A stretch of DNA of 32,000 nucleotides from an uncultured archaeon (GTDB lineage Archaea > Asgardarchaeota > Jordiarchaeia > Jordiarchaeales > Jordiarchaeaceae). The translations under genes were made by a program, and so were the position numbers. The notes beneath the pieces are model-generated. The model saw only the letters and a program-made list of their open reading frames with translations. It did not search any database and was not told the origin of the DNA. Position 1 is the stretch's first letter. Each line of letters starts with the position of its first letter. This document shows positions 710-18,233 of this stretch, piece by piece. The stretch covers positions 1-32,000 of the forward strand of contig CAZECW010000025.1 in NCBI GenBank assembly GCA_964510585.1. Reading direction: 5' to 3'.

Positions 710-715
710 TTTTAC

Positions 716-1992: not shown

Positions 1993-2400
1993 CTAAAAGT
2001 AGAAGTGAATATTGAGGGGGTACTCTACACATTTTAGAGTTTTTTTCTCAAGCTCTTTTAGAAGCAGATAGGTTTCAGGGTAGGTGTTTAGATGTTCAAT
2101 TTCATCTATCTTGAACCATTTATACTCCCTGGTGCCTTCGGTTAACTTTTTCACTATTTTGGCTTTAAATACAAAAAATAGGTGATAGTCTTCCTCCTTC
2201 TTTAATTCGTAAACTCTTGCCAAACTTTCAATCTCTATTAGGTACCCCGTTTCCTCTTTTATTTCTCTCTCCGCAGCTTCTATCACTCTTTCACCCTTCT
2301 CCACCTTCCCGCCAGGAATCGCCCATACTTCGTTATCGTTCACCAGAAGTGTCCTGCCCCTATCGTCCCTGATAATCACAGTAGCTACCACCACAACCAT
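1993..2400 (-). CDS. Nudix hydrolase
   Basis: Complete Nudix box GGKVEKGERVIEAAEREIKEETGY. ATG at 2400 chosen; track start is TTG at 2409. Confidence 0.88.
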   Translation of the reverse strand: MVVVVATVIIRDDRGRTLLVNDNEVWAIPGGKVEKGERVIEAAEREIKEETGYLIEIESLARVYELKKEEDYHLFFVFKAKIVKKLTEGTREYKWFKIDEIEHLNTYPETYLLLKELEKKTLKCVEYPLNIHFYF

Positions 2401-2502
2401 TATTAACAACCCTTTTAACGTCTTTATCTCTACTCTACTTCCACGTCTTATTAGGTTAATCTTTTATTTCCCTTTTCCTATTATTTTTTCAAACTTGGAA
2501 TT

Positions 2503-3459: not shown

Positions 3460-3648
3460 TTTAAAATTCTCCAAAAAAATAAATCTCGTCAAATATTTAT
3501 GGTTCTCCAGATGAAAACATGAATTTACAAATTTAATTCCAATCTAAATTTATCGAGATTTGGTTCTGCACTGCAACCTACAACCATTTATTTTTATGAC
3601 TAAAATTATTTAAAAAATGGAGCTGCCTTATTCCTGCAAGTAATCTTT

Positions 3649-4593
3649 TCATTTGGATGTACCGTACCAGCCGCCTCTAATGTAAAGGTAGGCGTTTACC
3701 GCCGCCGTGGCTCCCTCACCAACAGCAGTAGCAATCTGGAAAACGCCTCCAGTAACATCTCCCGCCGCAAAAATTCCTTCAATATTCGTTCTCTGTTCCC
3801 TGTCTACTACTATGTACCCACCCTCATCCAGTTTGACTCCTGCCTCCTTAGCTAAATCACTAACTGGCCTGTAGCCTACCGCTATGAAAACTGCATCCAC
3901 ATCCAATAAACTCTCCTCCCCCGTTTTGTTATTAGTGAGTCGAATTTTTTTCACCACCTTATCTCCCTCAATACTCCTTACTTCAGTATTCCAGTGAAAC
4001 TTAACTCCCTTCTCCGTCAAAGCCCTCTTGTAGTAAGCTTCAGCCCTCAAATCATCCCTCCTGTGAACTAAATGTACTTCCCCGGCAACATCACTCAAAT
4101 ATAGAGCCTCAGAACAAGCTGTATTGCCACCACCAACCACAAGCACCCTTTTACCCTTAAACAAGGGTCCATCACAAGTTGCACAATAGCTAACTCCTCT
4201 ACCACTAAACTGTTCTTCTCCTGGCACCCCAAGCTTCACATGCTCACGCCCCGTAGCAATTATAACCGCATCGGCCACATATGTCTCTCTGTCCGATATA
4301 ACCCTAACATGCTTTTCTCTCTTCTCTATTTTCCTGACTGGCTCTAAATCATGAATGTCGCATCCGCACCCCTCAGCTTGCTTTCTCATAGCATCCATTA
4401 ACTCCATTCCCCTAATTTTAACAAAACCAGGATAATTCTCAATAATAGCTGCCTCCGCGGCCTGTCCACCACTAACCTTAGCCTCTAAAATCACCGCATT
4501 TAAACCAAACCTAGCCGCATAAATTCCAGCGCTCAATCCCGCAGGCCCAGCGCCAATAATCACCAACTGCTTCTCAACTGGCAAAATAAACAC
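3649..4593 (-). CDS. trxB: Thioredoxin-disulfide reductase
   Basis: GAGPAG, IENYPGF, GRGVSYCATCDG (CxxC intact), GGGNTA, HRR, GIFAAGDV, QIATAVGEG. Confidence 0.92.
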   Translation of the reverse strand: MFILPVEKQLVIIGAGPAGLSAGIYAARFGLNAVILEAKVSGGQAAEAAIIENYPGFVKIRGMELMDAMRKQAEGCGCDIHDLEPVRKIEKREKHVRVISDRETYVADAVIIATGREHVKLGVPGEEQFSGRGVSYCATCDGPLFKGKRVLVVGGGNTACSEALYLSDVAGEVHLVHRRDDLRAEAYYKRALTEKGVKFHWNTEVRSIEGDKVVKKIRLTNNKTGEESLLDVDAVFIAVGYRPVSDLAKEAGVKLDEGGYIVVDREQRTNIEGIFAAGDVTGGVFQIATAVGEGATAAVNAYLYIRGGWYGTSK

Positions 4594-4748
4594 CCTCGAA
4601 CATCAAAATTCAAATATAAACTAACCATTCTAAAATCATCACCAAATAAAAATGTTTCATAGACTGGAATGATTCAGAGCCAAACCATTTAAAGCTTAAA
4701 CAAAAAATAACCTACAATAAGCCTCCTATCACGAAAAGCTTAGCAAAT

Positions 4749-4758
4749 AATATATATT
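4749..4758. promoter_or_regulatory. Palindromic TATA-like element in the divergent trxB / Rab-M20 intergenic region
   Basis: AATATATATT is self-complementary and lies between the two divergent starts. Confidence 0.35.
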
Positions 4759-4839
4759 TAAAAATATAGTAAAATTATGTAAAGCCACCAAAAATATGAG
4801 GAAAAAGGAGAAAATGGCAAAAGCTGCAATAGGGGCAGA

Positions 4840-6573
4840 GTGGATATGGTACCCAAGCATGAAGAATATGCGTTCAAAGTTGTTTGCATTGGGGATGGTG
4901 GTGTAGGCAAGACCAGCCTAATAGTAAGGCTAACCGAGAATAGGTTCTCAGAAGACTACAAAATGACTTTAGGAACTTCTTTTGCCGCTCACACCATAAA
5001 TATTGAGGATAAAATTGTGACTTTACAGATTTGGGATCTTGGAGGTCAGCCCTCCTTCAGTCACTTGAGGTCGTTTTTCTATGCTGGAGCTAAGGGGGCT
5101 GTGATTGTTTTTGACTTAACAGATATTAAATCTTTTAAGAATGTTACAACATGGTATAAAGAGTTGCGTAGCGTTTGCGGTGATGTGCCGATTGTTTTGA
5201 TCGGTAATAAGAATGATTTGGCTGGCAGCCGTGTTGTTGCTAGGCAGGAGGCGGAGATGCTTGCTAGAAGCTTGGGCGCACCTTACATTGAGACTAGTGC
5301 TAAAACTGGTGACAAGGTTAATTTGGCTTTTCAAAGTGTTTCAAGGCGCTTGTTGGGTATCGAAGAAAAGTTACCTATGGTAAAGGGTGTGGTGGTTCCA
5401 GATGTTAAGAGTAAGATTCTGCAGTTTATTGACAGTCGAAGGGACTATCTCCTAAATTTGCTTGGAGATCTAATTTCCGCTCGCTCTGTTAATCCTCCAG
5501 GAAATGAGAAGGTCGCCGCGGATGTTGTTCAAGGCGAGTTGTTTAGGATTGGAATGCAAACTGAATCTTACGAGAAGGAGAGTGGGCGGACCAACGTTGT
5601 GGGCTATGTGGAGAAGGGTAACTCTCCCACTTTAATGATTATTACACATCTGGATGTGGTGCCTGCAGGCGACGGATGGATTTATGATCCGTTTAAAGCT
5701 ACTCCCACTAATGGTAGGATTGTGGGTAGGGGTGTTGTTGATGATAAGGGGCCTATGGCCTCTGTTCTTCTGGCTATTCAAGCGCTTAAGGAGTTTAATT
5801 TTCCCATTCGGGGACGCTTGTTGTTTGTGGCCGTGGCAGATGAGGAAACTGGAAATGAGCTGGGCATAAAGTATCTTTTGAACGAAAAGGGCTTAACCGC
5901 TGATTATGCTTTGGTGGCTGAGCAAACTAAGTGTGAAGCGGTGGAGATTGCGGAAAAGGGCCGTTTGTGGGCAAGGCTGAAGAGTACTGGTGCACAAGGT
6001 CACGGTAGTATGCCGGTGAAGGGTGCGAATGCAATTGTAAATCTCTCAAAAGTTTTGGCCCGCATAGAAAACCTGAAAATGTCCTACACTGAGCATCCTC
6101 TGCTTGGAGCTCCAACCATAAATGTAGGAACAATAAAGGGCGGAGTGGCTATTAATGTGATTCCTGCTTCCGCCGAGGCCACAGTGGATATTAGATATCT
6201 ACCCTCTCAGGATTTGAGGCAGATAATTAACGAGTTGCGCGAATTAGTGAGGAGCGTCCAGAGGGAGAACCCTGGGCTAGAGGTGGCCATTGAGCCCATA
6301 GCTTCGGATCCCCCGACGGAAGTATCTCCGGAAGATCCCGTTGTCAGAGCAATGGTGAGTGTAATAAGGGAAGTGACGGGAAGCCAGCCTAAGCTAATTG
6401 GGATAGGGGGCGCTACAGTGGCGAAGCACTGTATTTCTCACGGTATTCCCACAGCTGTTTTTGGACCAGGGGATCCTAAAGAGGCCCACGCCGCAAACGA
6501 GAGTGTGTCCATAGATAGTTTACTTAAGGCAGCTAAAATTTATGCTCTGACCATATTAAACCTGCTCTCTTAA
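4840..6573 (+). CDS. Fusion of an N-terminal Rab-like small GTPase and a C-terminal M20 (ArgE/DapE-like) metallohydrolase
   Basis: aa ~11-173: GDGGVGKTS, WDLGGQ, GNKND, ETSAK. aa ~190-577: THLDVVP, GRGVVDDKG, ADEETG, VAEQT, GHGS, EAHAANE. No stop between domains. Likely start ATG 4846. Confidence 0.88.
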   Translation: MDMVPKHEEYAFKVVCIGDGGVGKTSLIVRLTENRFSEDYKMTLGTSFAAHTINIEDKIVTLQIWDLGGQPSFSHLRSFFYAGAKGAVIVFDLTDIKSFKNVTTWYKELRSVCGDVPIVLIGNKNDLAGSRVVARQEAEMLARSLGAPYIETSAKTGDKVNLAFQSVSRRLLGIEEKLPMVKGVVVPDVKSKILQFIDSRRDYLLNLLGDLISARSVNPPGNEKVAADVVQGELFRIGMQTESYEKESGRTNVVGYVEKGNSPTLMIITHLDVVPAGDGWIYDPFKATPTNGRIVGRGVVDDKGPMASVLLAIQALKEFNFPIRGRLLFVAVADEETGNELGIKYLLNEKGLTADYALVAEQTKCEAVEIAEKGRLWARLKSTGAQGHGSMPVKGANAIVNLSKVLARIENLKMSYTEHPLLGAPTINVGTIKGGVAINVIPASAEATVDIRYLPSQDLRQIINELRELVRSVQRENPGLEVAIEPIASDPPTEVSPEDPVVRAMVSVIREVTGSQPKLIGIGGATVAKHCISHGIPTAVFGPGDPKEAHAANESVSIDSLLKAAKIYALTILNLLS

Positions 6574-6584
6574 AATTTTAAGGT

Positions 6585-7028
6585 GTGGTTAAAGCTTTGG
6601 TTGAGTCAGAGAAATTTATTCGTTTTAGTGTTTCCCTCCCAGAAGACCTACTTAAAGAATTTGACAAGGTTACAGAGTCTCTTGGAATACAAGGTAGGTC
6701 TGACGCGATACGCAAAGCTATGCGTGACTTCATAGTAAACTATACTTGGATGCACAAGGGTAAGGGTGATATGGTGGGCTCAATAACCATAATCTTGGAC
6801 CACGAGACCACTGGAATAATGGATGAAATCACCGAGCTGCAGCACAGATATTTAAAATTGATAGCCTCCTCCATGCATGTACATTTGGATGAACGTGAAT
6901 GTATGATTGTTCTTGCAGTAAGGGGAAAAGTGGAGGATATCGAAAAACTCAACAATGAAATACTTGCCCTCAAGGGAGTTAAACTGGTAAAGTACACCAT
7001 TATGACCCCAGGAACCGAATTACCATAA
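6585..7028 (+). CDS. nikR: Nickel-responsive transcriptional regulator NikR
   Basis: Ribbon-helix-helix RFSVSLPEDLLKEFD...RSDAIRKAMR; Ni-ligand pattern QH...MHVHLDERECM. Confidence 0.9.
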   Translation: MVKALVESEKFIRFSVSLPEDLLKEFDKVTESLGIQGRSDAIRKAMRDFIVNYTWMHKGKGDMVGSITIILDHETTGIMDEITELQHRYLKLIASSMHVHLDERECMIVLAVRGKVEDIEKLNNEILALKGVKLVKYTIMTPGTELP

Positions 7029-7205
7029 ATTAAAATATGGAAGGGAACACCACTTTCCAAAATGTTTTTATACACCTGCTATTCAAGTGGGTACACCATA
7101 ATCACCTCCAAAAAAGGGATTTTGGAATAAATACTCGCTACCAACAAAGCCTACGTTTTTTCCAGCATAGTAGTCTGCTAGGCCTCCCCTACTAAAGAGG
7201 TGGAA

Positions 7206-8762
7206 ATGTTGCACTTGGAGTTGGATGGTTATTTCGAGTTGAGCGGTGTTCTTCCTAAGGAAGCCCAAAGAGAATTAGAAGCCTTCTTCGAGGAAGCCAA
7301 CAAAAAACTACTTAAAAAAGGAGCGCCCAAAGGAAAAGAATCTGAAGGGGCACAAGTAACCAATTGGGCTCTCAAGGGGAATAAGATAGAACTGCAGATA
7401 ATTAGCGGCAGATACGTTAGGGCGCACACCGCACTACTCAGACTTTCCAACGTATTATCCAACATTCTAGGATCAAAATATCACACTGGTATCCGAAAAT
7501 CTGTCGCCACCAAGTACAGAATTGAAACCCAACTTGAAAAAGCACCCCTAGAACCAGTAACCCTACCCTTCACCAAAGAATTAGAAATCAAGGATAAAAC
7601 TGCCACCATAACTATGGTGGAAATGGATGAGAGTGAACTCAAAAGAAACTATCCAGACCGCCTATTGCGGCGTCTCGAAGAGAAAATCACGGCCCAGTAT
7701 GTTCATGGAAAAGCGGAATACACACGCACCGTTGAAAGAAGCAACAAGGGCTTGGGAAAATACAAGTTGAGAGAAGACCCCACAGAGGCCGCGGTTAAAT
7801 TGGGATGGGTTAAAGAGTTCCCGGGAGCGGGCATATGGCAGATACTGCCCCCGTATGCTGCACTTATCAGAGCCATAGAAAACATAATCATCGACGACAT
7901 AGCAAAACCCCTAGGCTTCCAAGAAGTCATGCTTCCCCGACTAATTCCACTAGAAGTTGAGATGAAAAAAGGACACTTCGGAATAGCAAATGAGATAATA
8001 TGGGCCTGTCCTCCAATATCCCGAGACCCCAAGGAATTCGAGGAAATACTAGACTACGTGGAAATAACTGGCACTCCCCCCGTAGAATTACTCCAGAAAA
8101 AACTCCGCCCCCCAATGTTTGGACTAGCATACGCTCAATGTGAACCCTTCTACGAACTATTCGCCCAAGAAATAGTAGACGTAGAAGAACTTGAGAAAAA
8201 CCCCATAAAATTCTACGACAAAAATGGGCCCACCTGGAGGTGGGAAGGGGGAGGACTAAAAGGCCTAGAACGCCTAAACGAATTCCACAGAATAGAATTC
8301 GTATACATGGCGCCACCCCAAAAATGCATAGAAATAAGAGACCAAGTACTTGAAAAAGCAAAAACCATGATAGACAAAGATTTGGACTTAGAATACCGAA
8401 TAGACGCAACCACCGCCGTATACCTTGAACACGCGGGAATCGCCGAAGAACAGAAAGAGGAAGAATTCGTGAAAACCTACGACCTCACCGTAATACTCCC
8501 ATTCGAAACCAAAAGCAGACCCGAAGCCGAACTAGAAGTCTCCAGCTTCCACGTACACACCGACTTTTATGCCAAAAGATTCCACTTCCGAGACAAAACC
8601 CGCAAAACAGTATACACCGGATGCGTAGGAATGGGTCCATCCCGCTACGCATACGTAACACTAATACGGCACGGATTCAACTATGACGACTGGCCTCAAA
8701 AAATCAAAAAATACATTGGCGAAAAACTACCCGAAGTCCCCAAAACAGTAACCTGGCCATAA
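7206..8762 (+). CDS. serS: Seryl-tRNA synthetase, methanogen-type (rare form)
   Basis: N-domain FEEANKKLLKKGAP and SGRYVRAH, EDPT..AVKLGW, CPPISRDP, YAQCEPF, EFHRIEFV and YTGCVGMG match the methanogen-type pattern. SD GAGGTG precedes ATG 7206. Confidence 0.88.
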   Translation: MLHLELDGYFELSGVLPKEAQRELEAFFEEANKKLLKKGAPKGKESEGAQVTNWALKGNKIELQIISGRYVRAHTALLRLSNVLSNILGSKYHTGIRKSVATKYRIETQLEKAPLEPVTLPFTKELEIKDKTATITMVEMDESELKRNYPDRLLRRLEEKITAQYVHGKAEYTRTVERSNKGLGKYKLREDPTEAAVKLGWVKEFPGAGIWQILPPYAALIRAIENIIIDDIAKPLGFQEVMLPRLIPLEVEMKKGHFGIANEIIWACPPISRDPKEFEEILDYVEITGTPPVELLQKKLRPPMFGLAYAQCEPFYELFAQEIVDVEELEKNPIKFYDKNGPTWRWEGGGLKGLERLNEFHRIEFVYMAPPQKCIEIRDQVLEKAKTMIDKDLDLEYRIDATTAVYLEHAGIAEEQKEEEFVKTYDLTVILPFETKSRPEAELEVSSFHVHTDFYAKRFHFRDKTRKTVYTGCVGMGPSRYAYVTLIRHGFNYDDWPQKIKKYIGEKLPEVPKTVTWP

Positions 8763-8778
8763 AAAACCAAAAACAAAA
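8761..8778 (-). terminator. U-rich terminator candidate for leuS
   Basis: Minus strand reads TTTTGTTTTTGGTTTTTT about 60 nt after the leuS stop. Confidence 0.45.
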
Positions 8779-8820
8779 CCCCACACCCCTCCACCCAGAC
8801 AAGAATAAACCCCACACCCC
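8776..8820. repeat. 14-bp direct repeat AAACCCCACACCCC (two copies)
   Basis: Exact copies at 8776-8789 and 8807-8820, between the convergent serS and leuS. Confidence 0.8.
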
Positions 8821-8837
8821 CACTAAAACTTATTCAA

Positions 8838-11669
8838 TTAGGTTTCGATGAGAACTCCTGGTTTTAACGGTTCAGCCACCCTTGCCTTCTCATGCTTCGA
8901 CTCCTCAGCCCTCAGAACCTCAACCTTAGCTCCAAATTCCTTAGATAAGAAATCCGCCGCCTCAGACAAAGTCTTAAACTCCATTTCCTGAGTAAGCATT
9001 TCATGGCGGGGATTCTTAAGCAATTTTTGCGCATAGTTCACAGCATCTTTTCCCTGCCTCTTAACCTCAGCATCAGCCATAACTCTCTTTATCAAATCTT
9101 CCCTACTCTTCAAGGACTCCGCTAAAATCTTGTACTTCCAACCCTGAGCCACAAAAAGAGTAATCTTAGAAGGCTTCTCAATTCTGGCAACCTTAAGAAT
9201 CTCCTTTATATCCTCAATAGTGTCGCCTATGAGCTTCTCCCGAAGCTCCAACTCCTCATCAAAATACTTCTCATCATAAGTCGGCCAAGGCTCCTGGACA
9301 ATGAATCTCTTGTGACCGATACTCTCCCAAATCTCCTCACAGATATGAGGAGTCACAGGAGACACCAGCAGAATCATAGTCTCCACAGCCTTCCTTAAAA
9401 CATCCGAATATTCCTCAGTACGCTTCATATACCAACGAATATCATTCCATAAATCAAAAAACCCCTCCTGAAGAGCAGAGCGGTTCCTCATAACCTCATA
9501 ATACTCGGTAGCCGCCTTAATATGCCTATGAACTCTACTCAAAAGCCAACGATCAATATCCCTATCCAAAGGCTTAGTCTCAGGCAAACTAGTAGCAAAA
9601 TCATAAAACAACTCCAACCTCCTACGGAGACTCACAACCTCCTGAGCCCGCCAATCCGGATCCACCAACCCCTCAGCCGAATAAGCCAACTCAAAACGAG
9701 TAGGATCAGCATTATACTGATCCAAAGCCTCCTTAAGAGTAATAAAAATCCCCCGCGACTTACTCATCTTCTGCCCCTCGATCTGAATCATACCATTAGC
9801 CCCCACCATCCGCGGCCACTTATCCTCAGGCCAAATAGCCACATGCTGAAACAAGAAAAACGTCAAATGATTAAAAATCAACTCCTTAGCCGAATTCCTA
9901 AGAGAAACAGGATACCAATACTCAAACTCATCCCTCATCTCCTCCAACAACTCCTCATCCAAACCACTCCTCCCAGCAACCTCCTCCACATTTCCCTTAC
10001 CTAAAAAAATATAATCAAAAACCTCACGAGTCAACTTCTCTGCCGGAATCCCCAAACCATAAATATGCTTAGCAACAGTGTAAAAGGCCATATAAACCGT
10101 AGAATCCGATAAAGTCTCCACAATCCAATCCGGATCCCAAGGAAGCCTAGTACCCAAACCACTCCGCCGCACACAAGCCTTATCCTCCAACCAATCCACC
10201 GTATACTCAAAAGCACTCCTAGCCTCATCTGGAACAATAACCATACGCCCCAAAAGCTCCCTAACCCGCGCCTTCCACTCCGGATCACTATACTTCAAAA
10301 ACCACTGATTCTCCAAAATCTTCACAATAGTACGCGTATTGCAACGACAAACCACGGGCTCCGCAGTCTCCCACAAGCTACTCGCCTTACCTTCACTCAC
10401 AAAATCCGCAATCAACTCCTTCTTAACCTCAGCAACACTCCGCCCCACATACTTACCAGTAACCTTTTTAAGAACACCCTTATGAAACTCCTTCCTATAA
10501 ACCTCCTTAGTGATATCCTCCAACCGCCCATCCTTCTGACTCTTAATACCAGCCGCCTCAACAAGCTCCACAGCAGGATGCTCACCAAACCCCTCAGTCT
10601 CAATCAAAGAAATAGGCTTCAACCCCACAACAATACTCGGATCAATACCATACTCTCTAAGAACCTCAGGATTCCTACGCAAATCAGCGATAGCCGCCCA
10701 GTCAAAAGGAGCATGACTCGGAACACTCATAACCACACCCGAAGCATTACCCGGATCAACAAAAGAAGCCGGCAAAATGGGAACCTCACTACCCACCACG
10801 ACATTCCTACAAAACTTACCAATAAGCCTACGCCCCTCGAACTCCTCCAAAACCTCAACCACATGCAACTGATCCCTAAGCTTCTGAACCGCCTCCCTAC
10901 TAACAATCCACACCTCACCATCAACACGAGCCCTAACATAAACCGCATCCGGGTTCAACCACATATTCGTAACACCAAAAACAGTCTCCGGACGCAAAGT
11001 AGCAGCCATAAGAAAAGCATCATCACACTCAAACTTCAACAAAGTATACTCAATAGGAGAAACACCCTCACCCACCAATCGATCATGATCACCAGTAGGC
11101 GACAAACAACGAGGACACCAAACCACAGGATGACTACCCAAAACCACATAACCCTTATCACGCAAAGTCCAATACTGCCACTCAACAAACTTATTATAAG
11201 GAGGATCAACAGTAGTAAACTGCCGCCGCCAATCAACACTAAAACCAATCCGATCCACTGTTTCTATAGCTTCAGCCCGATAATAATCACCAATATATTT
11301 TGGATCCGTAAATTTGCTAATCTCCTCCCGTGGCACACCACTCCTAATCAAAATATCAATCTGCTTCTGATCACCCTCAGCAATACGCTTAGCCACACCC
11401 ACAAGTGGCTCCCCCGTATAATGAAAGGCAAAGGGAAACAACACATTATAACCTTGCATACGCTTAAAACGAGCATAAATATCAACACGCAAACAAGTTA
11501 AGGCATGACCTATATGCAGTGGACCATTCATATAGGCGTAAGGAAATGTAAATAGTTTTCCTTTTGAATATTTAGATTTTCTTTTATTCTTTGGTGGTGG
11601 GTCTGCTTGGAATATTTTTGCCTGTTTCCACTTTTGTTGCCATTTTTTTTCTATTTGGTTCCAGTCCAT
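8838..11669 (-). CDS. leuS: Leucyl-tRNA synthetase (archaeal/eukaryotic type)
   Basis: MDWNQIEKKWQ N-terminus, FPYAYMNGPLHIGH, ATLRPET, editing-domain GVVMSVPSHAPFD, KMSKS. Start set at ATG 11669 rather than the track's 11849. Confidence 0.95.
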   Translation of the reverse strand: MDWNQIEKKWQQKWKQAKIFQADPPPKNKRKSKYSKGKLFTFPYAYMNGPLHIGHALTCLRVDIYARFKRMQGYNVLFPFAFHYTGEPLVGVAKRIAEGDQKQIDILIRSGVPREEISKFTDPKYIGDYYRAEAIETVDRIGFSVDWRRQFTTVDPPYNKFVEWQYWTLRDKGYVVLGSHPVVWCPRCLSPTGDHDRLVGEGVSPIEYTLLKFECDDAFLMAATLRPETVFGVTNMWLNPDAVYVRARVDGEVWIVSREAVQKLRDQLHVVEVLEEFEGRRLIGKFCRNVVVGSEVPILPASFVDPGNASGVVMSVPSHAPFDWAAIADLRRNPEVLREYGIDPSIVVGLKPISLIETEGFGEHPAVELVEAAGIKSQKDGRLEDITKEVYRKEFHKGVLKKVTGKYVGRSVAEVKKELIADFVSEGKASSLWETAEPVVCRCNTRTIVKILENQWFLKYSDPEWKARVRELLGRMVIVPDEARSAFEYTVDWLEDKACVRRSGLGTRLPWDPDWIVETLSDSTVYMAFYTVAKHIYGLGIPAEKLTREVFDYIFLGKGNVEEVAGRSGLDEELLEEMRDEFEYWYPVSLRNSAKELIFNHLTFFLFQHVAIWPEDKWPRMVGANGMIQIEGQKMSKSRGIFITLKEALDQYNADPTRFELAYSAEGLVDPDWRAQEVVSLRRRLELFYDFATSLPETKPLDRDIDRWLLSRVHRHIKAATEYYEVMRNRSALQEGFFDLWNDIRWYMKRTEEYSDVLRKAVETMILLVSPVTPHICEEIWESIGHKRFIVQEPWPTYDEKYFDEELELREKLIGDTIEDIKEILKVARIEKPSKITLFVAQGWKYKILAESLKSREDLIKRVMADAEVKRQGKDAVNYAQKLLKNPRHEMLTQEMEFKTLSEAADFLSKEFGAKVEVLRAEESKHEKARVAEPLKPGVLIET

Positions 11670-11779
11670 TCTTGTCGCCCTTGAAGATGGTGTGTTGTTA
11701 GGTTGGTTATCTATTGAGTCATTATTTAAGAATTGTGTGCAACTTTTGTTGAAACTGACATTTGTGTCTTTAATTATTT

Positions 11780-12208
11780 TTATTCTTCTGGCCATTGTCC
11801 TAGTTCTAGTATGAACCCACATTTTTCTTGCGTGTCTAGGTAAGCCCATTTTACTCCGAAGATTTCTCCTCTGTCGAGGATTTTTACTCCAATTTTTTCT
11901 AGGTTTTTTAGTTCTTTTTCAATATCCTTGCAGTGATAGCTTACGTGGTGGAGTCCTTCTCCTTTTTGTTTGAGCCATTTGGAGTGTATTGTGTCTCCTT
12001 CTAGGGGTTGGATTAGCTCGATTTGTAGGTCTCCCTGCTGGTATATGCCGATTTTCACTTTGCCGCCTGGTACTTCTGTTTCTATTGTGGGAAATGGTCC
12101 TATTCCCAGCTTTTCTAGGAATTTTGCGGTCTTTTCCATGTCTTTTACTACTATTCCTAGTTGGCTGATTTTGTAGTCTGTTACCTTTTCGCTTGATGTG
12201 GTTTCCAT
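11780..12208 (-). CDS. VOC-family protein (methylmalonyl-CoA epimerase/glyoxalase-like)
   Basis: QLGIVVKDME, QIELIQP, GEGLHHVSY, ILELG. Confidence 0.85.
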   Translation of the reverse strand: METTSSEKVTDYKISQLGIVVKDMEKTAKFLEKLGIGPFPTIETEVPGGKVKIGIYQQGDLQIELIQPLEGDTIHSKWLKQKGEGLHHVSYHCKDIEKELKNLEKIGVKILDRGEIFGVKWAYLDTQEKCGFILELGQWPEE

Positions 12209-12344
12209 TTTTATGCCTCCTTTTTTTGGGTTGTTGTTTAGAGTGTTTTGGTTCTTAATTTAATTTTCTATTTTAGATAATTTAAAAAGTGTGAGAGTTA
12301 ATTATTGGGTGATTTAATCTGTCTGGAATTTTGGGGTGTTTGTT

Positions 12345-12803
12345 ATGTTGGAGGATGTTGAGGAAATTAAAAAGTTGAAGGCTAAGTATTGCTATTATGT
12401 GGATGGGTATTATGAGGATTCGTCGTGTCTGGATTTGCTTTTGAGAGAAGTGTTTGCTGAGGATGCTTTTGTTGATTTTGGACCTTTTGGGAGTGCTAAG
12501 GGTCGGGAAGAGATAAGGAACTTCTATGTAAACGTGGTTTTTGGGGTGCTTTCTTTTAGTATGCATATGTTGCTTAACCCTCTGATAGAGATTAATGGTG
12601 AGAGTAGGGCTACGGGTAAGTGGTATTTTTTTGTTCCAAGTACTATGAGGGAGAACAATTTGGCCGGTTGGCTTGCGGGAATATATGATGATGAGTACGA
12701 GAAAAGGAATGGGAAGTGGTTTATAAAATCGCAGAGGGTTAAATGGTTCTTTGGCACCCCCTACGATAAGGGCTGGTCTAGAGAGAACATGATTCCTAAA
12801 TAG
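12345..12803 (+). CDS. SnoaL-like / NTF2-fold protein (LinA/BaiE-like)
   Basis: EEIKKLKAKYCYYVD, FAEDA, GREEI, MHMLLNPLIEING, ATGKWY, YDDEYEKRNGKWFI. ATG at 12345; track start is GTG 12336. Confidence 0.82.
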   Translation: MLEDVEEIKKLKAKYCYYVDGYYEDSSCLDLLLREVFAEDAFVDFGPFGSAKGREEIRNFYVNVVFGVLSFSMHMLLNPLIEINGESRATGKWYFFVPSTMRENNLAGWLAGIYDDEYEKRNGKWFIKSQRVKWFFGTPYDKGWSRENMIPK

Positions 12804-12994
12804 GAAGCAATTTGACTCCTTCATAGTCGGTAACTCGGTCATTCAAAATTGGATGTTGTAGGGGTCCCACTTTAGTGGTGAGTGAATTTTTTGGGTCTAG
12901 ATGATTTCGAGCCTCAGCCATAACTATTTATGGGTTGTGGAGCAAGTTGTATTAGTATCTCGTACCTGTTGGTAATTTGTTTTGGGGTGGTTTT

Positions 12995-14281
12995 GTGAAG
13001 GCTAGGGTTGTTGTTGAGGATGTTTCGGAAATTAGAGAGTCTTTGCTCCGGGTTTTTGATGCTTTTGGTGGTGTTGAGGAGTTTGTTAAGCCTGATTCTA
13101 AGGTTTTCATAAAGTATAATGGTGTCCACTTTGGTAGGGTGATGTATACTGATCCTAGGGTTATAGGTGAGATGGTTAGTATTGCTAGGGAATTTACTGT
13201 GGATAAGGTTTATGTGATGGAGAATTCTACTCAGGGCAATTTTACTCGTATGGTCGCTGAGGTTAGTGGTATTGCTCAAATTGTTGAGGAGAGGGGGGGT
13301 GAGAATCTGTACTTGGATGAGCAGAAGCCGGTTATGGTGGAGATGGGTGATGAGCGTATTCCTACTAAGTTTCCTGAGATTTTGTATGATAACCTTATTC
13401 GCAGGAAGGGTAGCAATGTTCTGATTAATATTCCCAAGCTTAAGACGCATTGGGAGACTACTGTTACGCTGGGCATTAAGTGTTTTCAGGGGCTTCTTTA
13501 TGATTGCGATAAGCTTGTGAATCATAATTATAAGTTGCATCAGAAGCTTGTGGATACTGTAAAGTTTATTCGTCCGGATTTTACGATTATTGAGGGTATT
13601 ACTGCCACCCGGTTTGGCCATTTTCCCCCCGAGACTTTGCTTTCGGAGTGTGTGGTTCCATTGAATATTTTTATTGCTTCGAATGATGTGGTTGCATGTG
13701 ATACAGTGGGTGCGAAAATTCTGGGTTATGATGTTGAAGAGGTGAAACATATTAAGCTTGCCGCGGAGCAGGGACTAGGGATCGGTGACCTTAAAGATAT
13801 TGAAATTATCGGTGACATTTCGCGTTTCAGAGAGCGTTTCCCATATACCCCCTGTAGGGACTGCCCCAGTGAGGTGCGCTTTATTAGGGGGAGGGAGATG
13901 GCCTGTGTGGAGGGCTGCTATGGAAACACATTATTGGCTCTCCTCTATTTCTGGTACGATTTTAAAGGTGAGGGCGGCTTTAACATTATTGCAGGTAAGG
14001 GTGTTAGTGAGGACGAACTGGACAACCTTCTGCCCGGGGACATTTTAATCGTTGGGCCTTGCACAATTGAAGAGAACTTGGACAGGATTCGTGAAAAGTA
14101 TCCTGAACGCAAAATTTATACTATACCTGAATGTAACGATATTGCCAAAATTACTGCGTATCTGTGTGCCATGATGAAAATTGATGTTCTTAGCATGATT
14201 CCAATGGACACGAATAAAACGCTCGAAATAATACAACAGGCCCTGCAACATGGATTAGACGCAAATCTTCCCCTCCTCTAA
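12995..14281 (+). CDS. DUF362-domain protein with Cys-containing C-terminal extension
   Basis: FDAFGGVEEFVKPDSKVFIKYN, TDPRV, INIPKLKTH, VTLGIK, DVVACDTVG; extension contains CVEGC and GPC. GTG 12995 follows SD-like GGGGTG (track start 12977). Confidence 0.78.
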   Translation: MKARVVVEDVSEIRESLLRVFDAFGGVEEFVKPDSKVFIKYNGVHFGRVMYTDPRVIGEMVSIAREFTVDKVYVMENSTQGNFTRMVAEVSGIAQIVEERGGENLYLDEQKPVMVEMGDERIPTKFPEILYDNLIRRKGSNVLINIPKLKTHWETTVTLGIKCFQGLLYDCDKLVNHNYKLHQKLVDTVKFIRPDFTIIEGITATRFGHFPPETLLSECVVPLNIFIASNDVVACDTVGAKILGYDVEEVKHIKLAAEQGLGIGDLKDIEIIGDISRFRERFPYTPCRDCPSEVRFIRGREMACVEGCYGNTLLALLYFWYDFKGEGGFNIIAGKGVSEDELDNLLPGDILIVGPCTIEENLDRIREKYPERKIYTIPECNDIAKITAYLCAMMKIDVLSMIPMDTNKTLEIIQQALQHGLDANLPLL

Positions 14282-14470
14282 AAGCTCATCCTTATTGGGC
14301 GGCCCCTCCCCCCTTTGTGTTTTAATCCCCTTCTCCCTAGTTTCTCCCTTTTTATAAAGTATGATAAATGCTTAAATATGGAAAATAGATATGGTTAATT
14401 TAATTTGCACATGTATATAGAATTAGTGTTACACCCCTCTGAGATAAAGCTAGTTGAGGGTTGAGTTGGT

Positions 14471-15691
14471 ATGACAAAAATTTTCTTCACCAAAGAAGAA
14501 TTACGTTTCAGAGAGGAAGTTCGGGAATTCGCAAGAAGAGAGATAGCTCCATATGCCGACGATGTTGAAAAAGGAATGTATCCAGGGCCGCTCCTGAAGA
14601 AAATTGCTGAGGCGGGATACATGAGACAGCTGCATCCAATTGAGTACGGTGGAACCAACAAGGGCTTGGTGTACGAGATGATTGTCGCCGAGGAGATTGC
14701 TGCAGTTAGTGCACCCACCGATATGTCGCGTACTGCTTCATCTACACTATGTGCGATTCCCATATCTCGATTCGGTACTGATGAACAGAAAAGAAAGTAC
14801 CTGACACCTATAATAAGGGGAGAAATGATTGGGGCAATAGGCATTACAGAGCCAGATGTGGGGTCTGATACTGCTGGCATGAAAACTCGCGCAATAAGAG
14901 ATGGAGATGAGTATGTCATCAATGGTGAGAAGAGATTTATAACGAATGGGGCGGATGCGGATATTATTACTCTATTTGCCATTTCGAATCCGGAAGTGCC
15001 AGCGAAGCGGGGCGCTAGTGCTTTTATTTTTCCAACAGATACAGAAGGATTTAAGGTTGAGAAGGTTTACAACCTTCTGGGTATGCACGGTATGCGCATT
15101 GCACATTTGAAGTTTGAGAATTGCCGTATCCCCGCTGAAAATCTTCTTGGTAAGGAGGGTATGGGTTTTAATATCCTTATGGACGAGTTGGACACTGAGA
15201 GGATTTCTATTGCAGCAGAGATGATTGGAATTGCCCGGGCAGCATTTGAGATAGCCGTGAAATACTCCACCGAGCGTGTGCAGTTCAATAGGCCAATTAA
15301 CTGGTTTGAGGGGGTAAGTTTTAAGATTGCTGATATGGCTACCCAGCTAGATGCGGCGGAGCTTTTAACTCTACGTGCAGCACGGATGGTAAATCGTGGT
15401 GAAAATGCCAGCAAGGAATCAGCTATGGCTAAGGTGTTTGCAGTAGACCACGCCTTTGAAATTTGTAATCAGGCACTACAAATACTGGGCGGCATCGGGT
15501 ACACAACCGAATACCCTGTTGAACGCTATTTAAGGGATGTTAGGATTGGTATGATTGGCGGCGGGACGTCGGAAATAATGAGGTTTCTGATTCAGAGAGA
15601 GGTCTATAGGGAATTTGAGCAAAAGGCGGGAAAGGAGAAGCAAGCTATACCTGTTGAAGTTTCAAGCACTTCTGGCAGAGAGAACCCCTAA
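14471..15691 (+). CDS. Acyl-CoA dehydrogenase
   Basis: FGTDEQKRKYL, AIGITEPDVGSD, INGEKRFITNG, ILGGIGYTTEYPVERYLRD, IGGGTSEI. Confidence 0.93.
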   Translation: MTKIFFTKEELRFREEVREFARREIAPYADDVEKGMYPGPLLKKIAEAGYMRQLHPIEYGGTNKGLVYEMIVAEEIAAVSAPTDMSRTASSTLCAIPISRFGTDEQKRKYLTPIIRGEMIGAIGITEPDVGSDTAGMKTRAIRDGDEYVINGEKRFITNGADADIITLFAISNPEVPAKRGASAFIFPTDTEGFKVEKVYNLLGMHGMRIAHLKFENCRIPAENLLGKEGMGFNILMDELDTERISIAAEMIGIARAAFEIAVKYSTERVQFNRPINWFEGVSFKIADMATQLDAAELLTLRAARMVNRGENASKESAMAKVFAVDHAFEICNQALQILGGIGYTTEYPVERYLRDVRIGMIGGGTSEIMRFLIQREVYREFEQKAGKEKQAIPVEVSSTSGRENP

Positions 15692-15710
15692 GGATTAATC
15701 CTCTAGTTAA

Positions 15711-15720
15711 ACTTTTTTTG
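15711..15720 (+). terminator. Oligo-T terminator candidate after the acyl-CoA dehydrogenase gene
   Basis: A T7 run lies about 20 nt after the stop codon. Confidence 0.4.
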
Positions 15721-16106
15721 CTCCCTTCTTGACAGTATCCCTAGGAGGATTTCTTGTTTCCTACGGTACTGGGAGCGGCTTCCACACCACTTTTCATATA
15801 TGGAAGGAAAATCAGGAAATAGTAGCAAGTCTGACACTGGCAAACGGCTCTTTTTTGGTTGGCGTTTCTTGGATGTCTGTTTTTAACAGGATTTTAAACC
15901 CGATATTTTTACTGGGGATATATACAAACTTTTAATAAAACATTTAAATTATGGGGGATGACTGAATAAGTGGTATAATTTATGTTTCGCCTGCGTGAAA
16001 AGATATTAGAATTAGGTTTTGAGTAGTGTTTCAAAGTTGATTTGGATAGTTTGGAAAAATGGGTACCCTGAGAGCTGATTTAATGTTTTGCTGGAGTTGA
16101 ACGTTT

Positions 16107-16613
16107 ATGGTTTTGCGAGAAAGCTTGAATAAATTGACTCCGGAGAAGGAGATTGAGTTTCTTCGCGGAGCCTATTTTGGTGTGGATGGAGTTTGGTTTC
16201 TGGTTTGTGAGGATGAATATGATTTTGATGAGGCTCTTTACTTAGATGGTGAGGTTTGGAAACGTTTCGCTAAAATCCTGGCGAAGAGGGTGAAGAGATT
16301 ATTTGATGTTGAGGGCGAGGATGCGGAAACTGTGGCTGACACCCTTGCTTTACGCTGGACTATGGAAAAATGGGAATTTGAGGTTTTAGAGTATAGTGCA
16401 AAGAGGAGTGTACTACGGGTTACAAGTTGTCCTTGGCTTGAGGGGTTAAAAAAGTCCAATAGGGAGAAATTTATACCTAAAATATGCGACCCAGTTTGCG
16501 AGATTGTTTATCACAGCTGGGCGGAAGCCATTAACCCAAAAATCGAGGTAGAGAAACCGAAAACGAGGGGAAAAGGAGACACGTATTGCGATTTCATATT
16601 TACTCTAAAGTAA
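16107..16613 (+). CDS. DUF6125 / ATC-hydrolase-like small-ligand-binding protein
   Basis: YFGVDGVWF, EALYLDGEVW, VTSCPW, CDPVC, GDTYCDFIF. Confidence 0.65.
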   Translation: MVLRESLNKLTPEKEIEFLRGAYFGVDGVWFLVCEDEYDFDEALYLDGEVWKRFAKILAKRVKRLFDVEGEDAETVADTLALRWTMEKWEFEVLEYSAKRSVLRVTSCPWLEGLKKSNREKFIPKICDPVCEIVYHSWAEAINPKIEVEKPKTRGKGDTYCDFIFTLK

Positions 16614-16692
16614 TAGTTTCAGGTTGGGGCAAAGATAGGTTAAAGAAGAAATTGATATTTTATGCTACACCTTTCTTATGGTGGTGATGTAG

Positions 16693-17103
16693 ATGTCGCT
16701 TGGCGGCAAGATAAGAAACTTTCTGGGCGACGATCCTAAGAAGCTTGTTGATGAAATACTCAAGAGCATGAAAGAAGAGTATGGTGAAATTCCCTTTATT
16801 GCAAAATCTATGAGTAGTCAGAGACCAGAAGCATTTATTTTCAATGCCCTACAAACCCTATTTATATTGAAAAGGCCTAAAGCAGTTCCTCAAAAAACAG
16901 CGGAGCTCTTAGCCATCGCAGCCGCTACCGCCATTGGATGCGAACACTGTATAGATTTTCATATAAGGGCCGCTATGCGCCTTGGAGTGTCCAAGGATGA
17001 AATATTTGACGCCATAATGGTTGCCGGCCTAATCTCTCAGACGTCAAAATTAGCCGTAGGCCTAAGAAAGCTGGAGAGGGCTTCCCTATCAGATTCACCT
17101 TAG
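16693..17103 (+). CDS. Carboxymuconolactone decarboxylase / AhpD-like protein
   Basis: KTAELLAIAAATAIGCEHCIDFHIRAAMRLGVSKDEI, with CxxC and His intact. Confidence 0.85.
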   Translation: MSLGGKIRNFLGDDPKKLVDEILKSMKEEYGEIPFIAKSMSSQRPEAFIFNALQTLFILKRPKAVPQKTAELLAIAAATAIGCEHCIDFHIRAAMRLGVSKDEIFDAIMVAGLISQTSKLAVGLRKLERASLSDSP

Positions 17104-18233
17104 GGTTCCTTATGGAAGTGGTTTCCAGCGAATAATTCAGCTATATCCACTATCTTAATTTTGCTCCGAGATTTCAATAGATTTTGCAGACAGGAGGGGC
17201 AAGATGTGATTATAGCATCAACTCTTAACTTTTCCGCCTCATCTATTTTGAGTTCCGCAGCATTCCGAGCAGTTTCTTGGTCGTAGGCTCTCAATAAACC
17301 TCCTCCCCCACAACATATCGCTTCGTCCTTGCACTGATTGTATTCCTCAAGCTTCAACCCCGGAATACTTTTAAGCGCTCTTCGCGGCTCTTCTATTACC
17401 CCACATCCCCGAGCTAGTTCACAAGGATCTTGGTAAACTACACGTAGGTCACCCACAGATTCTGGTTTAATTTTTCCCTCCTCCACGAGTCTGGATATGA
17501 ACTGGGTTATATGTTCCACTTTGAAGGGAACTTCAGTGATTTTGGGGTAAACATCTCTCCACATTCTAAAACAGGCGGGACACGATGTTACCAATGTCTT
17601 TATTTTGAGATCCTTGAAGGCCTTCACGTTTTCTTCTATAATTTTTTTCGCTTGCCCCAGTCTTCCCGCCATAAGTAGGGGAGCCGCACAGCAGTTCTCA
17701 TCGGGGCCTAGAATTGTGAAGTCTACGTTTGCCTTTCGGAAGATTTTTATGGTCGCCAAAGGAATTCTTGCAGCGGAGGGGCTATATGCAGAGTTGCAGC
17801 CAACAAAATACCCTACCTCAGCTGGAACCTTCACCCTGTCTTCCACCGGCTCTTCTGATTCGTAAGTCCACATCAACCAGTCCTCCCTCTCTGCTCCATG
17901 GACATTTCCACTATCCTGAATATTATCTACTACTTGTTTTACATTTGTGGGAAGCTCATCTTCCCCTAATTGACTTCTAAGGTACTCAACGACTAGGGGA
18001 ACCGGGACGCCTCTGGGACAGACCTTCACACAAGCCATGCACAGGGTGCAGTTAAAGGAGTTTTTGGCAGAGTGCTTCTCTCTCTCTGGGGTTCTGAAGC
18101 CCTCGGAGGCAAAATATCTAGAGTTTACTGGTGAACTTGCTCTGGCCACAGGGCAGAAGGCGATGCAGGTGCCACATCTTATACATTTGTCTGTTTTTTT
18201 GAGAAGTTCGGCTTTTTCACCCAATTCTAGCAT
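17100..18233 (-). CDS. glpC: Fe-S/CCG-domain subunit (GlpC/HdrD-like) of anaerobic glycerol-3-phosphate dehydrogenase
   Basis: Two CxxCxxCxxxCP motifs (CIRCGTCIAFCP, CTLCMACVKVCP), two CCG domains (NCCAAP, ICCGGG); overlaps the glpB stop. Confidence 0.78.
   Translation of the reverse strand: MLELGEKAELLKKTDKCIRCGTCIAFCPVARASSPVNSRYFASEGFRTPEREKHSAKNSFNCTLCMACVKVCPRGVPVPLVVEYLRSQLGEDELPTNVKQVVDNIQDSGNVHGAEREDWLMWTYESEEPVEDRVKVPAEVGYFVGCNSAYSPSAARIPLATIKIFRKANVDFTILGPDENCCAAPLLMAGRLGQAKKIIEENVKAFKDLKIKTLVTSCPACFRMWRDVYPKITEVPFKVEHITQFISRLVEEGKIKPESVGDLRVVYQDPCELARGCGVIEEPRRALKSIPGLKLEEYNQCKDEAICCGGGGLLRAYDQETARNAAELKIDEAEKLRVDAIITSCPSCLQNLLKSRSKIKIVDIAELFAGNHFHKEP

Follow-up and report, generated by a model that had tools for sequence, protein, structure and literature searches.

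We have identified a sharp reversal of strand composition within the leucyl-tRNA synthetase gene (leuS) of an uncultured Asgard archaeon, and the leuS region ranks among the strong members of a class of two-armed keto-skew domains, which number about 150 in this genome of a Freyarchaeia/Jordarchaeia genus. From a fixed centre, the strand that runs 5' to 3' outward has been pushed almost to pure G/T at unconstrained sites, in a DNA-level, strand-symmetric and mutation-driven pattern, while the proteins have been kept intact by selection. Silent sites at 85-100% of one base class, with heritable, same-direction reversals completed within one to 20 codons, signify a local strand-discriminating process in the lineage, and this discrimination is far stronger than replication or transcription is known to give. 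The flips mark the action of a local, hitherto undescribed process that acts unequally on the two DNA strands.

The features of the window (the whole 32,000-nucleotide stretch that was analysed) are collected in Table 1. Silent codon positions in leuS pass from about 90% A/C to about 85% G/T, the change being spread over about 20 codons. On the plus strand, third codon positions are 87% A/C in 7,200-11,500 and 85% G/T in 11,560-14,000, with a base make-up of 48% A, 39% C, 7% G and 6% T in the left arm and of 55% T, 31% G, 7% A and 8% C in the right arm. The switch zone corresponds to leuS codons ~37-57 (FTFPYAYMNGPLHIGHAL), directly before and over the HIGH motif, and the best change point lies at about codon 45. 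The left plateau extends for 2.2 kb, mostly at keto skews of -0.8 to -1.0 in 40-codon bins, and the outer left arm takes in the leuS 3' end, a 75-bp spacer (keto skew -0.76) and all of serS. The right plateau is 2.1 kb long and spans the first ~36 leuS codons, the VOC and SnoaL genes, most of the DUF362 gene and the intervening spacers. Across 9.5-11.25 kb, GC skew stands at about -0.5 and AT skew lies between about +0.2 and +0.4, and both signs are opposite to the right of the switch (AT skew -0.4 to -0.5 at 11.5-12.5 kb; GC skew +0.3 to +0.56 at 12.0-13.75 kb). A weak right tail (+0.2 to +0.5) reappears at 14.6-16.5 kb.

The flip had been noticed from manual codon counts, and every one of these was reproduced exactly: A/C endings in 19 of 20 serS codons (8460-8519), 21 of 22 VOC codons (2-23) and 23 of 27 leuS codons within codons 2-31, and G/T endings in 20 of 20 leuS codons at 9959-9900, 13 of 13 at leuS codons 58-70, and 29 of the first 32 SnoaL codons after its ATG. 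The leuS codon numbers in these counts start from the true start at 11669, and the reversal does fall within one gene. Fading of the right-hand bias by ~13.8 kb was likewise borne out, the skew there being +0.15.

Table 1. Positions of the skew features and genes in the window
Feature	Coordinates	Strand	Remarks
Centre/switch zone, mixed	11500..11560		Third-position change point best at 11,532
Left arm, saturated plateau	9318..11499		Plus strand 90-100% A/C at third positions
Left arm, outer fading part	7200..9317		Skew from -0.8 to -0.1 at serS start
Right arm plateau	11561..13650		~85% G/T at plus-strand third positions (+0.5 to +0.85)
Right arm end, within DUF362 gene	13651..14281		Skew from +0.65 to +0.15 in ~250 nt
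Inverted repeat, 8 bp perfect, 12-nt loop	11509..11536		CCTATATG (11509-11516) / CATATAGG (11529-11536)
leuS, leucyl-tRNA synthetase, 943 aa	8838..11669	-	ATG at 11669 is the true start (MDWNQIEKKW); coding-strand third-position keto skew (k3) +0.68
serS, seryl-tRNA synthetase, archaeal type with tRNA_bind_4 domain	7200..8762	+	Coding strand A/C-ending (k3 -0.48)
Glyoxalase/VOC-family gene	11780..12208	-	Coding strand A/C-ending (k3 -0.68)
SnoaL-like gene, ATG at 12345	12336..12803	+	G/T-ending (k3 +0.57)
DUF362 gene	12977..14281	+	G/T-ending (k3 +0.50)
Second, weaker skew domain	3649..6573		Step 0.42, centre ~4,830-5,000

The 8-bp inverted repeat sits exactly at the leuS centre, where it is encoded by the codons for A-Y-M and H-I-G, and is probably incidental, since an equally long one occurs at only 3 of 93 centres. 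Two opposed TATA-like boxes are also found at this centre. The centre of the second, weaker domain lies at a divergent gene pair, a thioredoxin-reductase-like gene (-) and a Ras-GTPase/M20 peptidase fusion (+).

A chance origin of the flip is excluded. Against a genome-wide standard deviation of 0.129 for 500-bp keto skew, the leuS step of 0.72 is the third largest in 3.78 Mb, and within-gene codon shuffling yielded no gene with a step of at least 1.1, compared with 33 observed. So sharp a junction could come from a chimeric assembly, from the breakpoint of a recent inversion or from the joining of horizontally acquired pieces with different codon dialects, and assemblers as well as recombination can cross over at conserved motifs. 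However, the switch is bridged by contigs of three independent metagenome assemblies from different studies (X2, 10528-11807, with 0 differences; X14, 11156-12253; X5, one 18-kb contig), and five congeneric genomes (G001-G005, one of them closed) flip at the same leuS codon. The leuS frame and protein are intact, with 83-97% identity across the genus, and inversions would be expected to produce down jumps as often as up jumps, whereas 36 and 0 were observed. The flip is not a chimera, given the bridging contigs and the shared codon, and we regard artefactual or junctional origins together as having almost no probability.

The genome holds 146 sharp A/C-to-G/T jumps, approximately one per 25 kb, which answers the earlier note's call for a genome-wide count. 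Polarity is uniform: among steps of at least 0.5, 36 go up and none down, and in-gene steps of at least 1.2 divide 25 to 2. Centres are between one or a few and ~20 codons wide, and the mean arm profile is symmetric, staying level to 1 kb and reaching zero by 3-4 kb; individual arms end within 2-4 kb, typically hold a plateau of ~2 kb per side, and traverse genes of both orientations. Genes within 3 kb of in-gene centres move alike in plus-strand terms whichever way they point (-0.32 and -0.14 on the left, +0.24 and +0.26 on the right, against baselines of -0.07 and +0.07), so that the orientation independence first seen around leuS holds genome-wide. Genes flanking centres show no outward co-orientation. 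The centres are intergenic in 54% of cases, and nearly half lie in genes. Convergent gene ends carry a ~4-fold excess of centres, while divergent promoters are depleted among them and show no mean jump, and coding strands turn A/C-ending toward gene 3' ends. In-gene centres favour conserved protein motifs (mean conservation percentile 0.755, n = 7 genes, p ~ 0.01). Of 10 ABC ATPase paralogues, 5 have their flip exactly at Walker B (DEP|T.GLD), as against 2% at random sites, and a strong flip is found at homologous sites of paralogues in 9.6% of cases versus 2.2% at random sites. The paralogues with co-located flips are only 53-71% identical in DNA and have therefore undergone no recent conversion. 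The strength of one centre, C173:24493, varies among lineages: four species have it strong, two weak. A search of the centres, which the earlier note had also suggested, revealed no shared sequence motif, hairpin, intron or known RNA, no GC dip and no AT-rich anomaly; CTATA, ACTATA and GATATA k-mers are mildly enriched, and A/T hexamers show no positional excess.

The skew reflects mutation pressure filtered by selection, because spacers are skewed too and codon positions 1 and 2, with keto skews near 0 in the domain genes, hardly at all. Beside another centre, unconstrained spacer DNA consists almost exclusively of G/T. C>T and A>G have about equal shares in the pattern, and y3 and r3 move together in every domain gene. 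Selection rather than mutation could be invoked, given that A/C-ending codons are Watson-Crick read and G/T-ending codons wobble read, whereby a flip could programme translation speed, or given selection for unstructured RNA. Sharp in-gene flips do run from A/C-ending (5') to G/T-ending (3'), and they tend toward conserved motifs, the same motif in paralogues. Yet non-coding spacers are skewed as much as codons, the arms pass through opposite-oriented neighbours with a sign set by the DNA and not by the gene, and the in-gene 5'-to-3' rule is the mere strand symmetry of an upward jump. The spacer and neighbour-gene data largely refute selection as the cause, which we consider very improbable. 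An ML model indicates that the arms of the leuS domain are eroding now, in which case the skew is not a steady-state footprint; we infer that, at the time of the genus ancestor, the process acted more strongly on this locus than at present.

The earlier note had proposed a site of bidirectional replication initiation or unwinding. The fixed point and the kilobase-range asymmetry in both directions stand, as does the polarity (the strand running 5' to 3' away from the centre is G/T-rich), but a chromosomal origin does not fit with ~150 such points and 2-4 kb arms. Each centre might instead be a local initiation or unwinding site, perhaps dormant and origin-like or recombination-dependent, at which the lagging-strand template is exposed mostly in the first ~2 kb. 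The polarity is the same as at origins, sharpness is limited to upward jumps as at human N-domain borders, the arms are symmetric and independent of orientation, and the spacing is similar to eukaryotic origin density. Yeast origins prefer convergent intergenic regions, and the placement of the centres resembles this. On the other hand, nearly half of the centres lie in coding sequence, at conserved motifs; the leuS centre itself is in coding sequence and not in an intergenic AT-rich unwinding element. As the earlier note had stated for cdc6/orc1 and ORB elements, a scan of 22 window ORFs (179-19387) yielded no Orc1/Cdc6 domain, and only short two-copy chance repeats, none of them ORB-like, occur at 10.8-12.4 kb. 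The skew falls to zero without running to a terminus, and the lack of outward gene co-orientation also speaks against origins. In the closed congeneric genome G005 (3,576,204 bp), ~8.8 kb of foreign-looking DNA adjoining the centre shows no skew, and cumulative GC skew has been reported to be consistent with bidirectional replication (PMC11291895). The leuS switch is probably not a replication origin, and local initiation at every centre is unlikely.

Transcription alone had been judged insufficient, and the present data agree: the coding strands of serS and VOC are rich in A/C, and centres avoid divergent promoters. G/T enrichment of coding strands downstream of promoters is not the pattern found, serS and VOC being reversed and neighbours being shifted whatever their orientation. 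A more elaborate possibility, which we hold to be doubtful but more probable than replication initiation, is that cryptic bidirectional in-gene starts and read-through at convergent ends give rise to ribosome-free RNAs and R-loops, in which the displaced non-template strand (5' to 3' outward) deaminates. Translation would keep ordinary mRNAs from leaving a mark, and cryptic promoters would last only where amino-acid constraint shields them from their own mutagenesis. The polarity fits the established C>T and A>G bias of the non-template strand, and the enrichment of convergent 3' ends, the depletion of divergent promoters and the increasingly A/C-ending coding strands toward 3' ends are all in keeping with R-loops. 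Sharp centres look like transcription start sites, promoter gain or loss could underlie the lineage-specific strength of C173:24493, and both the mildly enriched k-mers and the opposed TATA-like boxes at leuS would suit promoters. Human genes have GC skew and R-loops at both their 5' and 3' ends (PMC3787257). Against this, A/T hexamers lack a positional excess, and a G/T-rich arm is absent downstream of the 16S and 23S rRNA genes of G005, which among untranslated genes are transcribed the most. The SnoaL and DUF362 genes lie in sense and, although presumably translated, are fully skewed; symmetric plateaus of ~2.1 kb are unexpected from two independent transcripts, and cryptic intragenic promoters would have to out-mutate every real promoter.

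The closest described pattern is that of GRINS, which have been linked to gene conversion and occur most often in Streptomyces. By definition these are duplicated regions (>80% identity, >500 bp), located in bacterial genes such as those for PKS; the GRINS paper mentions single-copy skewed regions too and makes no mention of archaea (PMC8256042). Our best, tentative explanation is DNA synthesis in the course of repair or recombination, anchored at fixed sites and akin to GRINS in single copy. A break or nick would recur at the centre, and DNA synthesis or strand displacement of the D-loop or gap-filling type would then proceed outward over a limited distance, with one strand exposed as single-stranded DNA or made in an error-prone step. 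The keto/amino axis could arise because the displaced strand deaminates or because EndoMS/NucS cleaves G.T and A.C mismatches unequally. Centres might recur at convergent gene ends, or where a short, highly conserved sequence finds other DNA to pair with, in a paralogue or a foreign homologue. The genome encodes EndoMS/NucS, the only mismatch system searched for. This nuclease prefers G-T, G-G and T-T mismatches and has little activity on A-C; it introduces double-strand breaks and limits homeologous recombination, and actinobacteria rely on it (PMC8228993).

Repair synthesis is supported by the mutational, DNA-level nature and the uniform polarity of the pattern, by the symmetry of the arms, which is more easily reconciled with a symmetric DNA transaction than with two unrelated transcripts, and by the flips at homologous paralogue sites, the conserved motifs at in-gene centres and the lineage-specific strength at a single site. 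In turn, a homology trigger does not predict the ~4-fold convergent-end excess or the 54% of centres that are intergenic; pairing between paralogues cannot be general, as leuS, RtcB and PurD each have a single strong match per genome searched; NucS is present also in relatives without the strong flips tested; and the centres have no common motif, hairpin or composition anomaly. The earlier rejection of 5'-to-3' resection on polarity is valid only where deamination strikes the exposed strand: keto-base lesions, G.T-biased mismatch handling or displaced/nascent-strand exposure would reverse or restore the sign. Canonical resection with deamination of the 3' tail gives the opposite polarity, and repair synthesis therefore needs a displaced or nascent strand, or a bias in mismatch handling. 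A more far-reaching version, in which the centres would be ~150 fixed bidirectional DNA synthesis starts per genome, triggered by pairing of conserved sequence with non-identical DNA that EndoMS/NucS cuts, or by another site-anchored break, has only a small probability.

If the centres are such synthesis starts, an Asgard archaeon would possess a dense, heritable map of recombination-dependent initiation sites, and the same chemistry would explain actinobacterial GRINS. A mechanistic handle on GRINS, which are found in antibiotic synthase genes, would follow. Skewed DNA also distorts codon-usage, horizontal gene transfer and phylogenetic inferences. Long spurious ORFs and wrong start calls arise because skewed DNA is depleted of stop codons; leuS was called 60 codons too long in this way, and the resulting 1003-aa ORF reaching 11849 is rejected as a spurious extension.

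Four known systems bear comparison. Replication origins (bacterial GC/keto skew, archaeal oriC and human N-domains) share the sign, the restriction of sharpness to upward jumps and the irrelevance of gene orientation, but leuS-type domains have a far larger amplitude (85-100% at silent sites), arms of 2-4 kb and ~150 centres, many of them in genes and without the sequence features of origins. Transcription and R-loop skew is alike in substitution types, kilobase range, sharp starts and the link to closely spaced convergent gene ends, whereas here the sign tracks DNA position and not annotated gene direction, centres are underrepresented at divergent promoters, and rRNA genes carry no mark. Vertebrate mitochondrial DNA, with strand-displacement replication, shows near-saturated C>T and A>G on the displaced strand, at silent sites and with intact proteins, yet its gradient is one-armed, genome-long and graded with single-stranded time, in contrast to a two-armed, local plateau. 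Like GRINS, the leuS domain has mean absolute GC and TA skews of >0.15 over >500 bp and correlated GC/TA skews (keto versus amino) that are intense and strongest at third positions, together with an abrupt sign change in functional genes and a slight shift in amino-acid use; for GRINS, recombination or gene conversion is the suspected mechanism. Unlike GRINS, it has no second copy in the genome, where blastn of 5,001-17,000 returned three matches of 129-191 bp at 67-71% identity, and it comprises several unrelated genes and spacers, with two arms and uniform polarity, in an archaeal host.

The keto skew (G+T-A-C) of the plus strand reverses inside leuS, running from -0.12 to -0.40 in 500-bp windows across 7.0-11.5 kb and from +0.20 to +0.38 across 11.5-14.0 kb. 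The six manual codon counts on which the earlier note had based this switch were all reproduced exactly. Third-position skew on the coding strand is -0.48 in serS, +0.68 in leuS, -0.68 in the VOC gene, +0.57 in the SnoaL gene and +0.50 in the DUF362 gene, while codon positions 1 and 2 of these genes lie near zero; the effect thus sits at silent sites. Left-arm third positions on the plus strand are 48% A, 39% C, 7% G and 6% T, and those of the right arm are 55% T, 31% G, 7% A and 8% C. In 40-codon bins, the left arm is saturated between 11,478 and ~9,318, where it forms a plateau of mostly -0.8 to -1.0; values of -0.25 to -0.8 follow over the end of leuS, the spacer (-0.76) and the 3' half of serS, and -0.1 is reached where serS begins. 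The right arm holds +0.5 to +0.85 as far as ~13,650 and falls to +0.15 by 13,820. The plateaus therefore extend ~2.2 kb to the left and ~2.1 kb to the right of the centre, for which a third-position change point was placed at 11,532, within a mixed zone at 11,500-11,560 that corresponds to leuS codons ~37-57 (FTFPYAYMNGPLHIGHAL).

The source MAG, that of an Asgard archaeon, comprises 3.78 Mb in 217 contigs, and the leuS step of 0.72 between adjacent 1-kb windows is its third largest (SD of 500-bp skew, 0.129). The earlier note had asked whether a chimeric join could account for the switch. Three further public hot-spring runs, which belong to different studies, have contigs that span it, one of these contigs being 18 kb long, and the homologous leuS codon flips in 5/5 other genomes of the genus (-0.14 to -0.71 on one side, +0.49 to +1.00 on the other). 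Step size, bridging contigs and the shared flip together exclude chance or an assembly artefact. The flip is weak and one-sided in the sister family, and absent from Odinarchaeum.

Stop codons are scarce on both strands of the skewed DNA, giving rise to long shadow ORFs of up to 339 aa, and such domains will mislead gene callers. The mechanically called leuS ORF reaches 11849 (1003 aa). Its alignment to relatives outside the genus begins only at residue ~55-65, and the orthologue in the closed genome of a congener (G005) has 943 aa and the N-terminus MDWNQIEKKW; leuS therefore truly starts at the ATG at 11669, and the paucity of stop codons in skewed DNA is the sole cause of the extension. Elsewhere in the window, a single ORF at 4840-6573 (+) encodes a Ras/Roc-family small GTPase domain (residues 13-171) fused to an M20 peptidase with a dimerisation domain.

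Genes and false reading frames in and around the leuS domain
Feature	Coordinates	Strand	Remark
serS	7200-8762	+	
leuS	8838-11669	-	
glyoxalase/VOC	11780-12208	-	
SnoaL-like	12336-12803	+	
DUF362	12977-14281	+	
acyl-CoA dehydrogenase	14471-15691	+	
long shadow ORF	10482-11501	+	stop-depleted skewed DNA
long shadow ORF	12282-12842	-	stop-depleted skewed DNA
long shadow ORF	12914-13750	-	stop-depleted skewed DNA
false N-terminal leuS extension, 60 codons	11670-11849	-	stop-depleted skewed DNA

The genome-wide count of switches proposed in the earlier note places leuS in a class. Between 1-kb windows, jumps with an absolute step of at least 0.3 comprise 146 upward (A/C to G/T on the plus strand) and 56 downward cases; the ratio becomes 60 to 9 at 0.4 or more and 36 to 0 at 0.5 or more. 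Third-position steps of at least 1.2 within genes number 25 upward and 2 downward, and none remain after codon shuffling. The mean domain profile is symmetric, with a plateau at ±0.25 to 1 kb, a return to zero by 3-4 kb and a step within ~20 bp that is partly by construction, the centres having been placed at the skew minimum. Genes less than 3 kb from in-gene centres show the same-direction DNA shift in either orientation (contig C196 is an example), and an unconstrained spacer beside another centre is nearly pure G/T, so the domains are a mutational asymmetry at the DNA level. On the strand running 5'->3' outward, C>T and A>G changes have built up, about equally at pyrimidine and purine sites. 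Selection on codons is excluded, as the right-arm spacers at leuS are skewed as the codons are (+0.36, +0.45 and +0.23) and the sign is fixed on the DNA. Heat is not required, since G005 comes from wetland soil.

Genes contain 66 of the 143 classifiable centres; the other 77 are either intergenic or no more than 60 nt from the end of a gene. Intergenic centres fall between convergent (30), tandem (40) and divergent (7) genes, against length-based expectations of 19%, 56% and 25%. A mean jump is present at convergent ends, and third positions grow A/C-ending toward the 3' ends of genes. Ordinary transcription fails as the cause: serS, VOC and the jump-free divergent promoters contradict it, bearing out the view of the earlier note that transcription alone is insufficient. 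A variant in which read-through without translation and cryptic starts in both directions give rise to R-loops would agree with the polarity, the excess at convergent ends and the sharpness of the centres. It is weakened by the symmetry of the plateaus, by the full skew of the sense genes SnoaL and DUF362, by the failure to find a promoter signal at centres (no positional excess of TATA-like A/T hexamers) and by the unmarked rRNA genes of G005, where no G/T arm was found downstream of 16S or 23S; the upstream side of 16S has ~2.5 kb of moderately A/C-rich DNA. These 16S (C1:1804896-1806517) and 23S (1836803-1839888) genes are unlinked, ~30 kb apart, and no rRNA genes were detected in the MAG under study.

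Many in-gene centres coincide with conserved motifs. With five distant Asgard orthologues as the reference, conservation at the switch fell at percentile 0.56 in leuS, 0.87 in atpB, 0.68 in rbcL, 0.96 in rtcB, 0.96 in purD, 0.45 in actin and 0.82 in a thiolase, a mean of 0.755 over the seven genes (p ~0.01). Among ten ABC ATPase paralogues (40-76% identical in amino acids and 53-71% in DNA), five have the flip exactly behind Walker B, between DEP and T.GLD, compared with 2% of random sites, and over all paralogue pairs a strong flip recurs at the homologous site in 9.6% vs 2.2%. In a genome of another Asgard family (G021:C1:605082-606488), V-ATPase B has a third-position flip from -0.54 to +0.26 at the same codon as here (PDLTGYITEGQ); the flip may have recurred independently at this one motif. 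The RtcB ORF at C58:4017-5039 has 340 aa and matches the Pfam RtcB profile only from position 95, the open frames of four relatives having 487-509 aa; an intron or frame break may have split off its 5' part.

The centres were searched for common features. No k-mer occurred in more than ~15% of them when compared with synthetic-junction controls, hairpins were not enriched (MFE -14.2 vs -13.2, p 0.11; equal inverted-repeat lengths), no local GC anomaly was seen, and Rfam returned nothing at 20 intergenic centres (E<=0.01) except one tRNA ~350 nt off. At the leuS centre, TATA-like words form an 8-bp inverted repeat, a length found in only 3/93 centres. BHB mini-introns were rejected, there being no jump at those of ppsA (C56, ~9207-9234) or hypD (C97, ~2600), as were tRNA genes, which have only a weak mean jump (0.13) where detected. 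ARAGORN found 5-7 tRNA genes and Rfam (RF00005) 9 in this 96% complete genome; they are probably intron-laden, heavily interrupted or otherwise atypical. Presence of NucS does not discriminate: besides the genus, relatives in which the strong flips tested are missing have the protein too.

The earlier note had proposed a site of bidirectional initiation or unwinding. A fixed, two-armed centre is upheld; a replication origin as such is not supported. There are too many centres, nearly half of them in genes, origin features were not found (GC dip at centres, ORB-like repeats in 10.8-12.4 kb, Orc1/Cdc6 among the 22 ORFs scanned at 179-19387), the arms are short and the flanking genes are not co-oriented outward, and cumulative GC skew of the closed congener is reported to be consistent with bidirectional replication (PMC11291895).

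Three congeners (G001, G003 and G004) are collinear with the window region at 91-94% DNA identity. G005 retains the leuS-serS arm at full strength and has, directly upstream of leuS (~1,398,100-1,407,050), ~8.8 kb of unskewed DNA with unrelated genes, ~6.4 kb of it between ~51-bp direct repeats of sequence that lies upstream of leuS (1400490-1400540 and 1406965-1407016). This insert is probably an integrated mobile element; a DNA search did not find SnoaL or DUF362 at the locus. Erosion was assessed with a two-state non-stationary maximum likelihood (ML) model of third positions. Without among-site rate variation and with Met and Trp codons kept in, it gave keto frequencies of 0.15 now, 0.07 at the root and 0.35 at the present-process equilibrium for the left arm (2dlnL 20.4), and of 0.80, 0.82 and 0.58 for the right arm (2dlnL 21.3). 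Parsimony counts run in the same direction, though parsimony polarisation alone was judged to be biased ~2-fold and was superseded by ML. The skew at leuS is therefore now eroding; under the model, the present process is biased in the same direction and too weak to sustain it. At C173:24493, four species (that of the MAG, G001, G003 and G004) have strong arms and two (G005 and G002) weak ones, while a centre near C173:37000 is of equal strength in both. Outside the genus, most of the centres tested do not recur. In the flank at 5000-7030, third-position divergence between G001 and G004 is ~7-9x below that of the skew arms (5 changes/1070 sites), which may reflect recent gene flow between this pair there.

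Site-anchored repair or recombination synthesis is the basis that we tentatively favour for the domains. The steps we infer begin with a break or nick that recurs at the centre. Synthesis or strand displacement would then proceed outward over a limited distance, and either deamination of the displaced strand or an EndoMS/NucS asymmetry between G-T and A-C would give rise to the keto/amino axis. NucS, which makes double-strand breaks at G-T, G-G and T-T, scarcely any at A-C, and keeps homeologous pairing in check (PMC8228993), is encoded in this genome. The earlier note had argued that resection from a central break predicts the opposite polarity, an argument that holds for deamination of 3' tails and no further. 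Repair synthesis would tie together the effect of conserved motifs and paralogues, the symmetry of the arms and the likeness to GRINS (PMC8256042).

The literature searched yielded no report, for Asgard or other archaea, of domains with two arms and uniform polarity, and archaea are not mentioned in the GRINS paper (PMC8256042). No second copy of the leuS domain was found in the genome, so that the region lacks the repeats that define GRINS; it does have the skew by which they are recognised, and GRINS are the closest described pattern.
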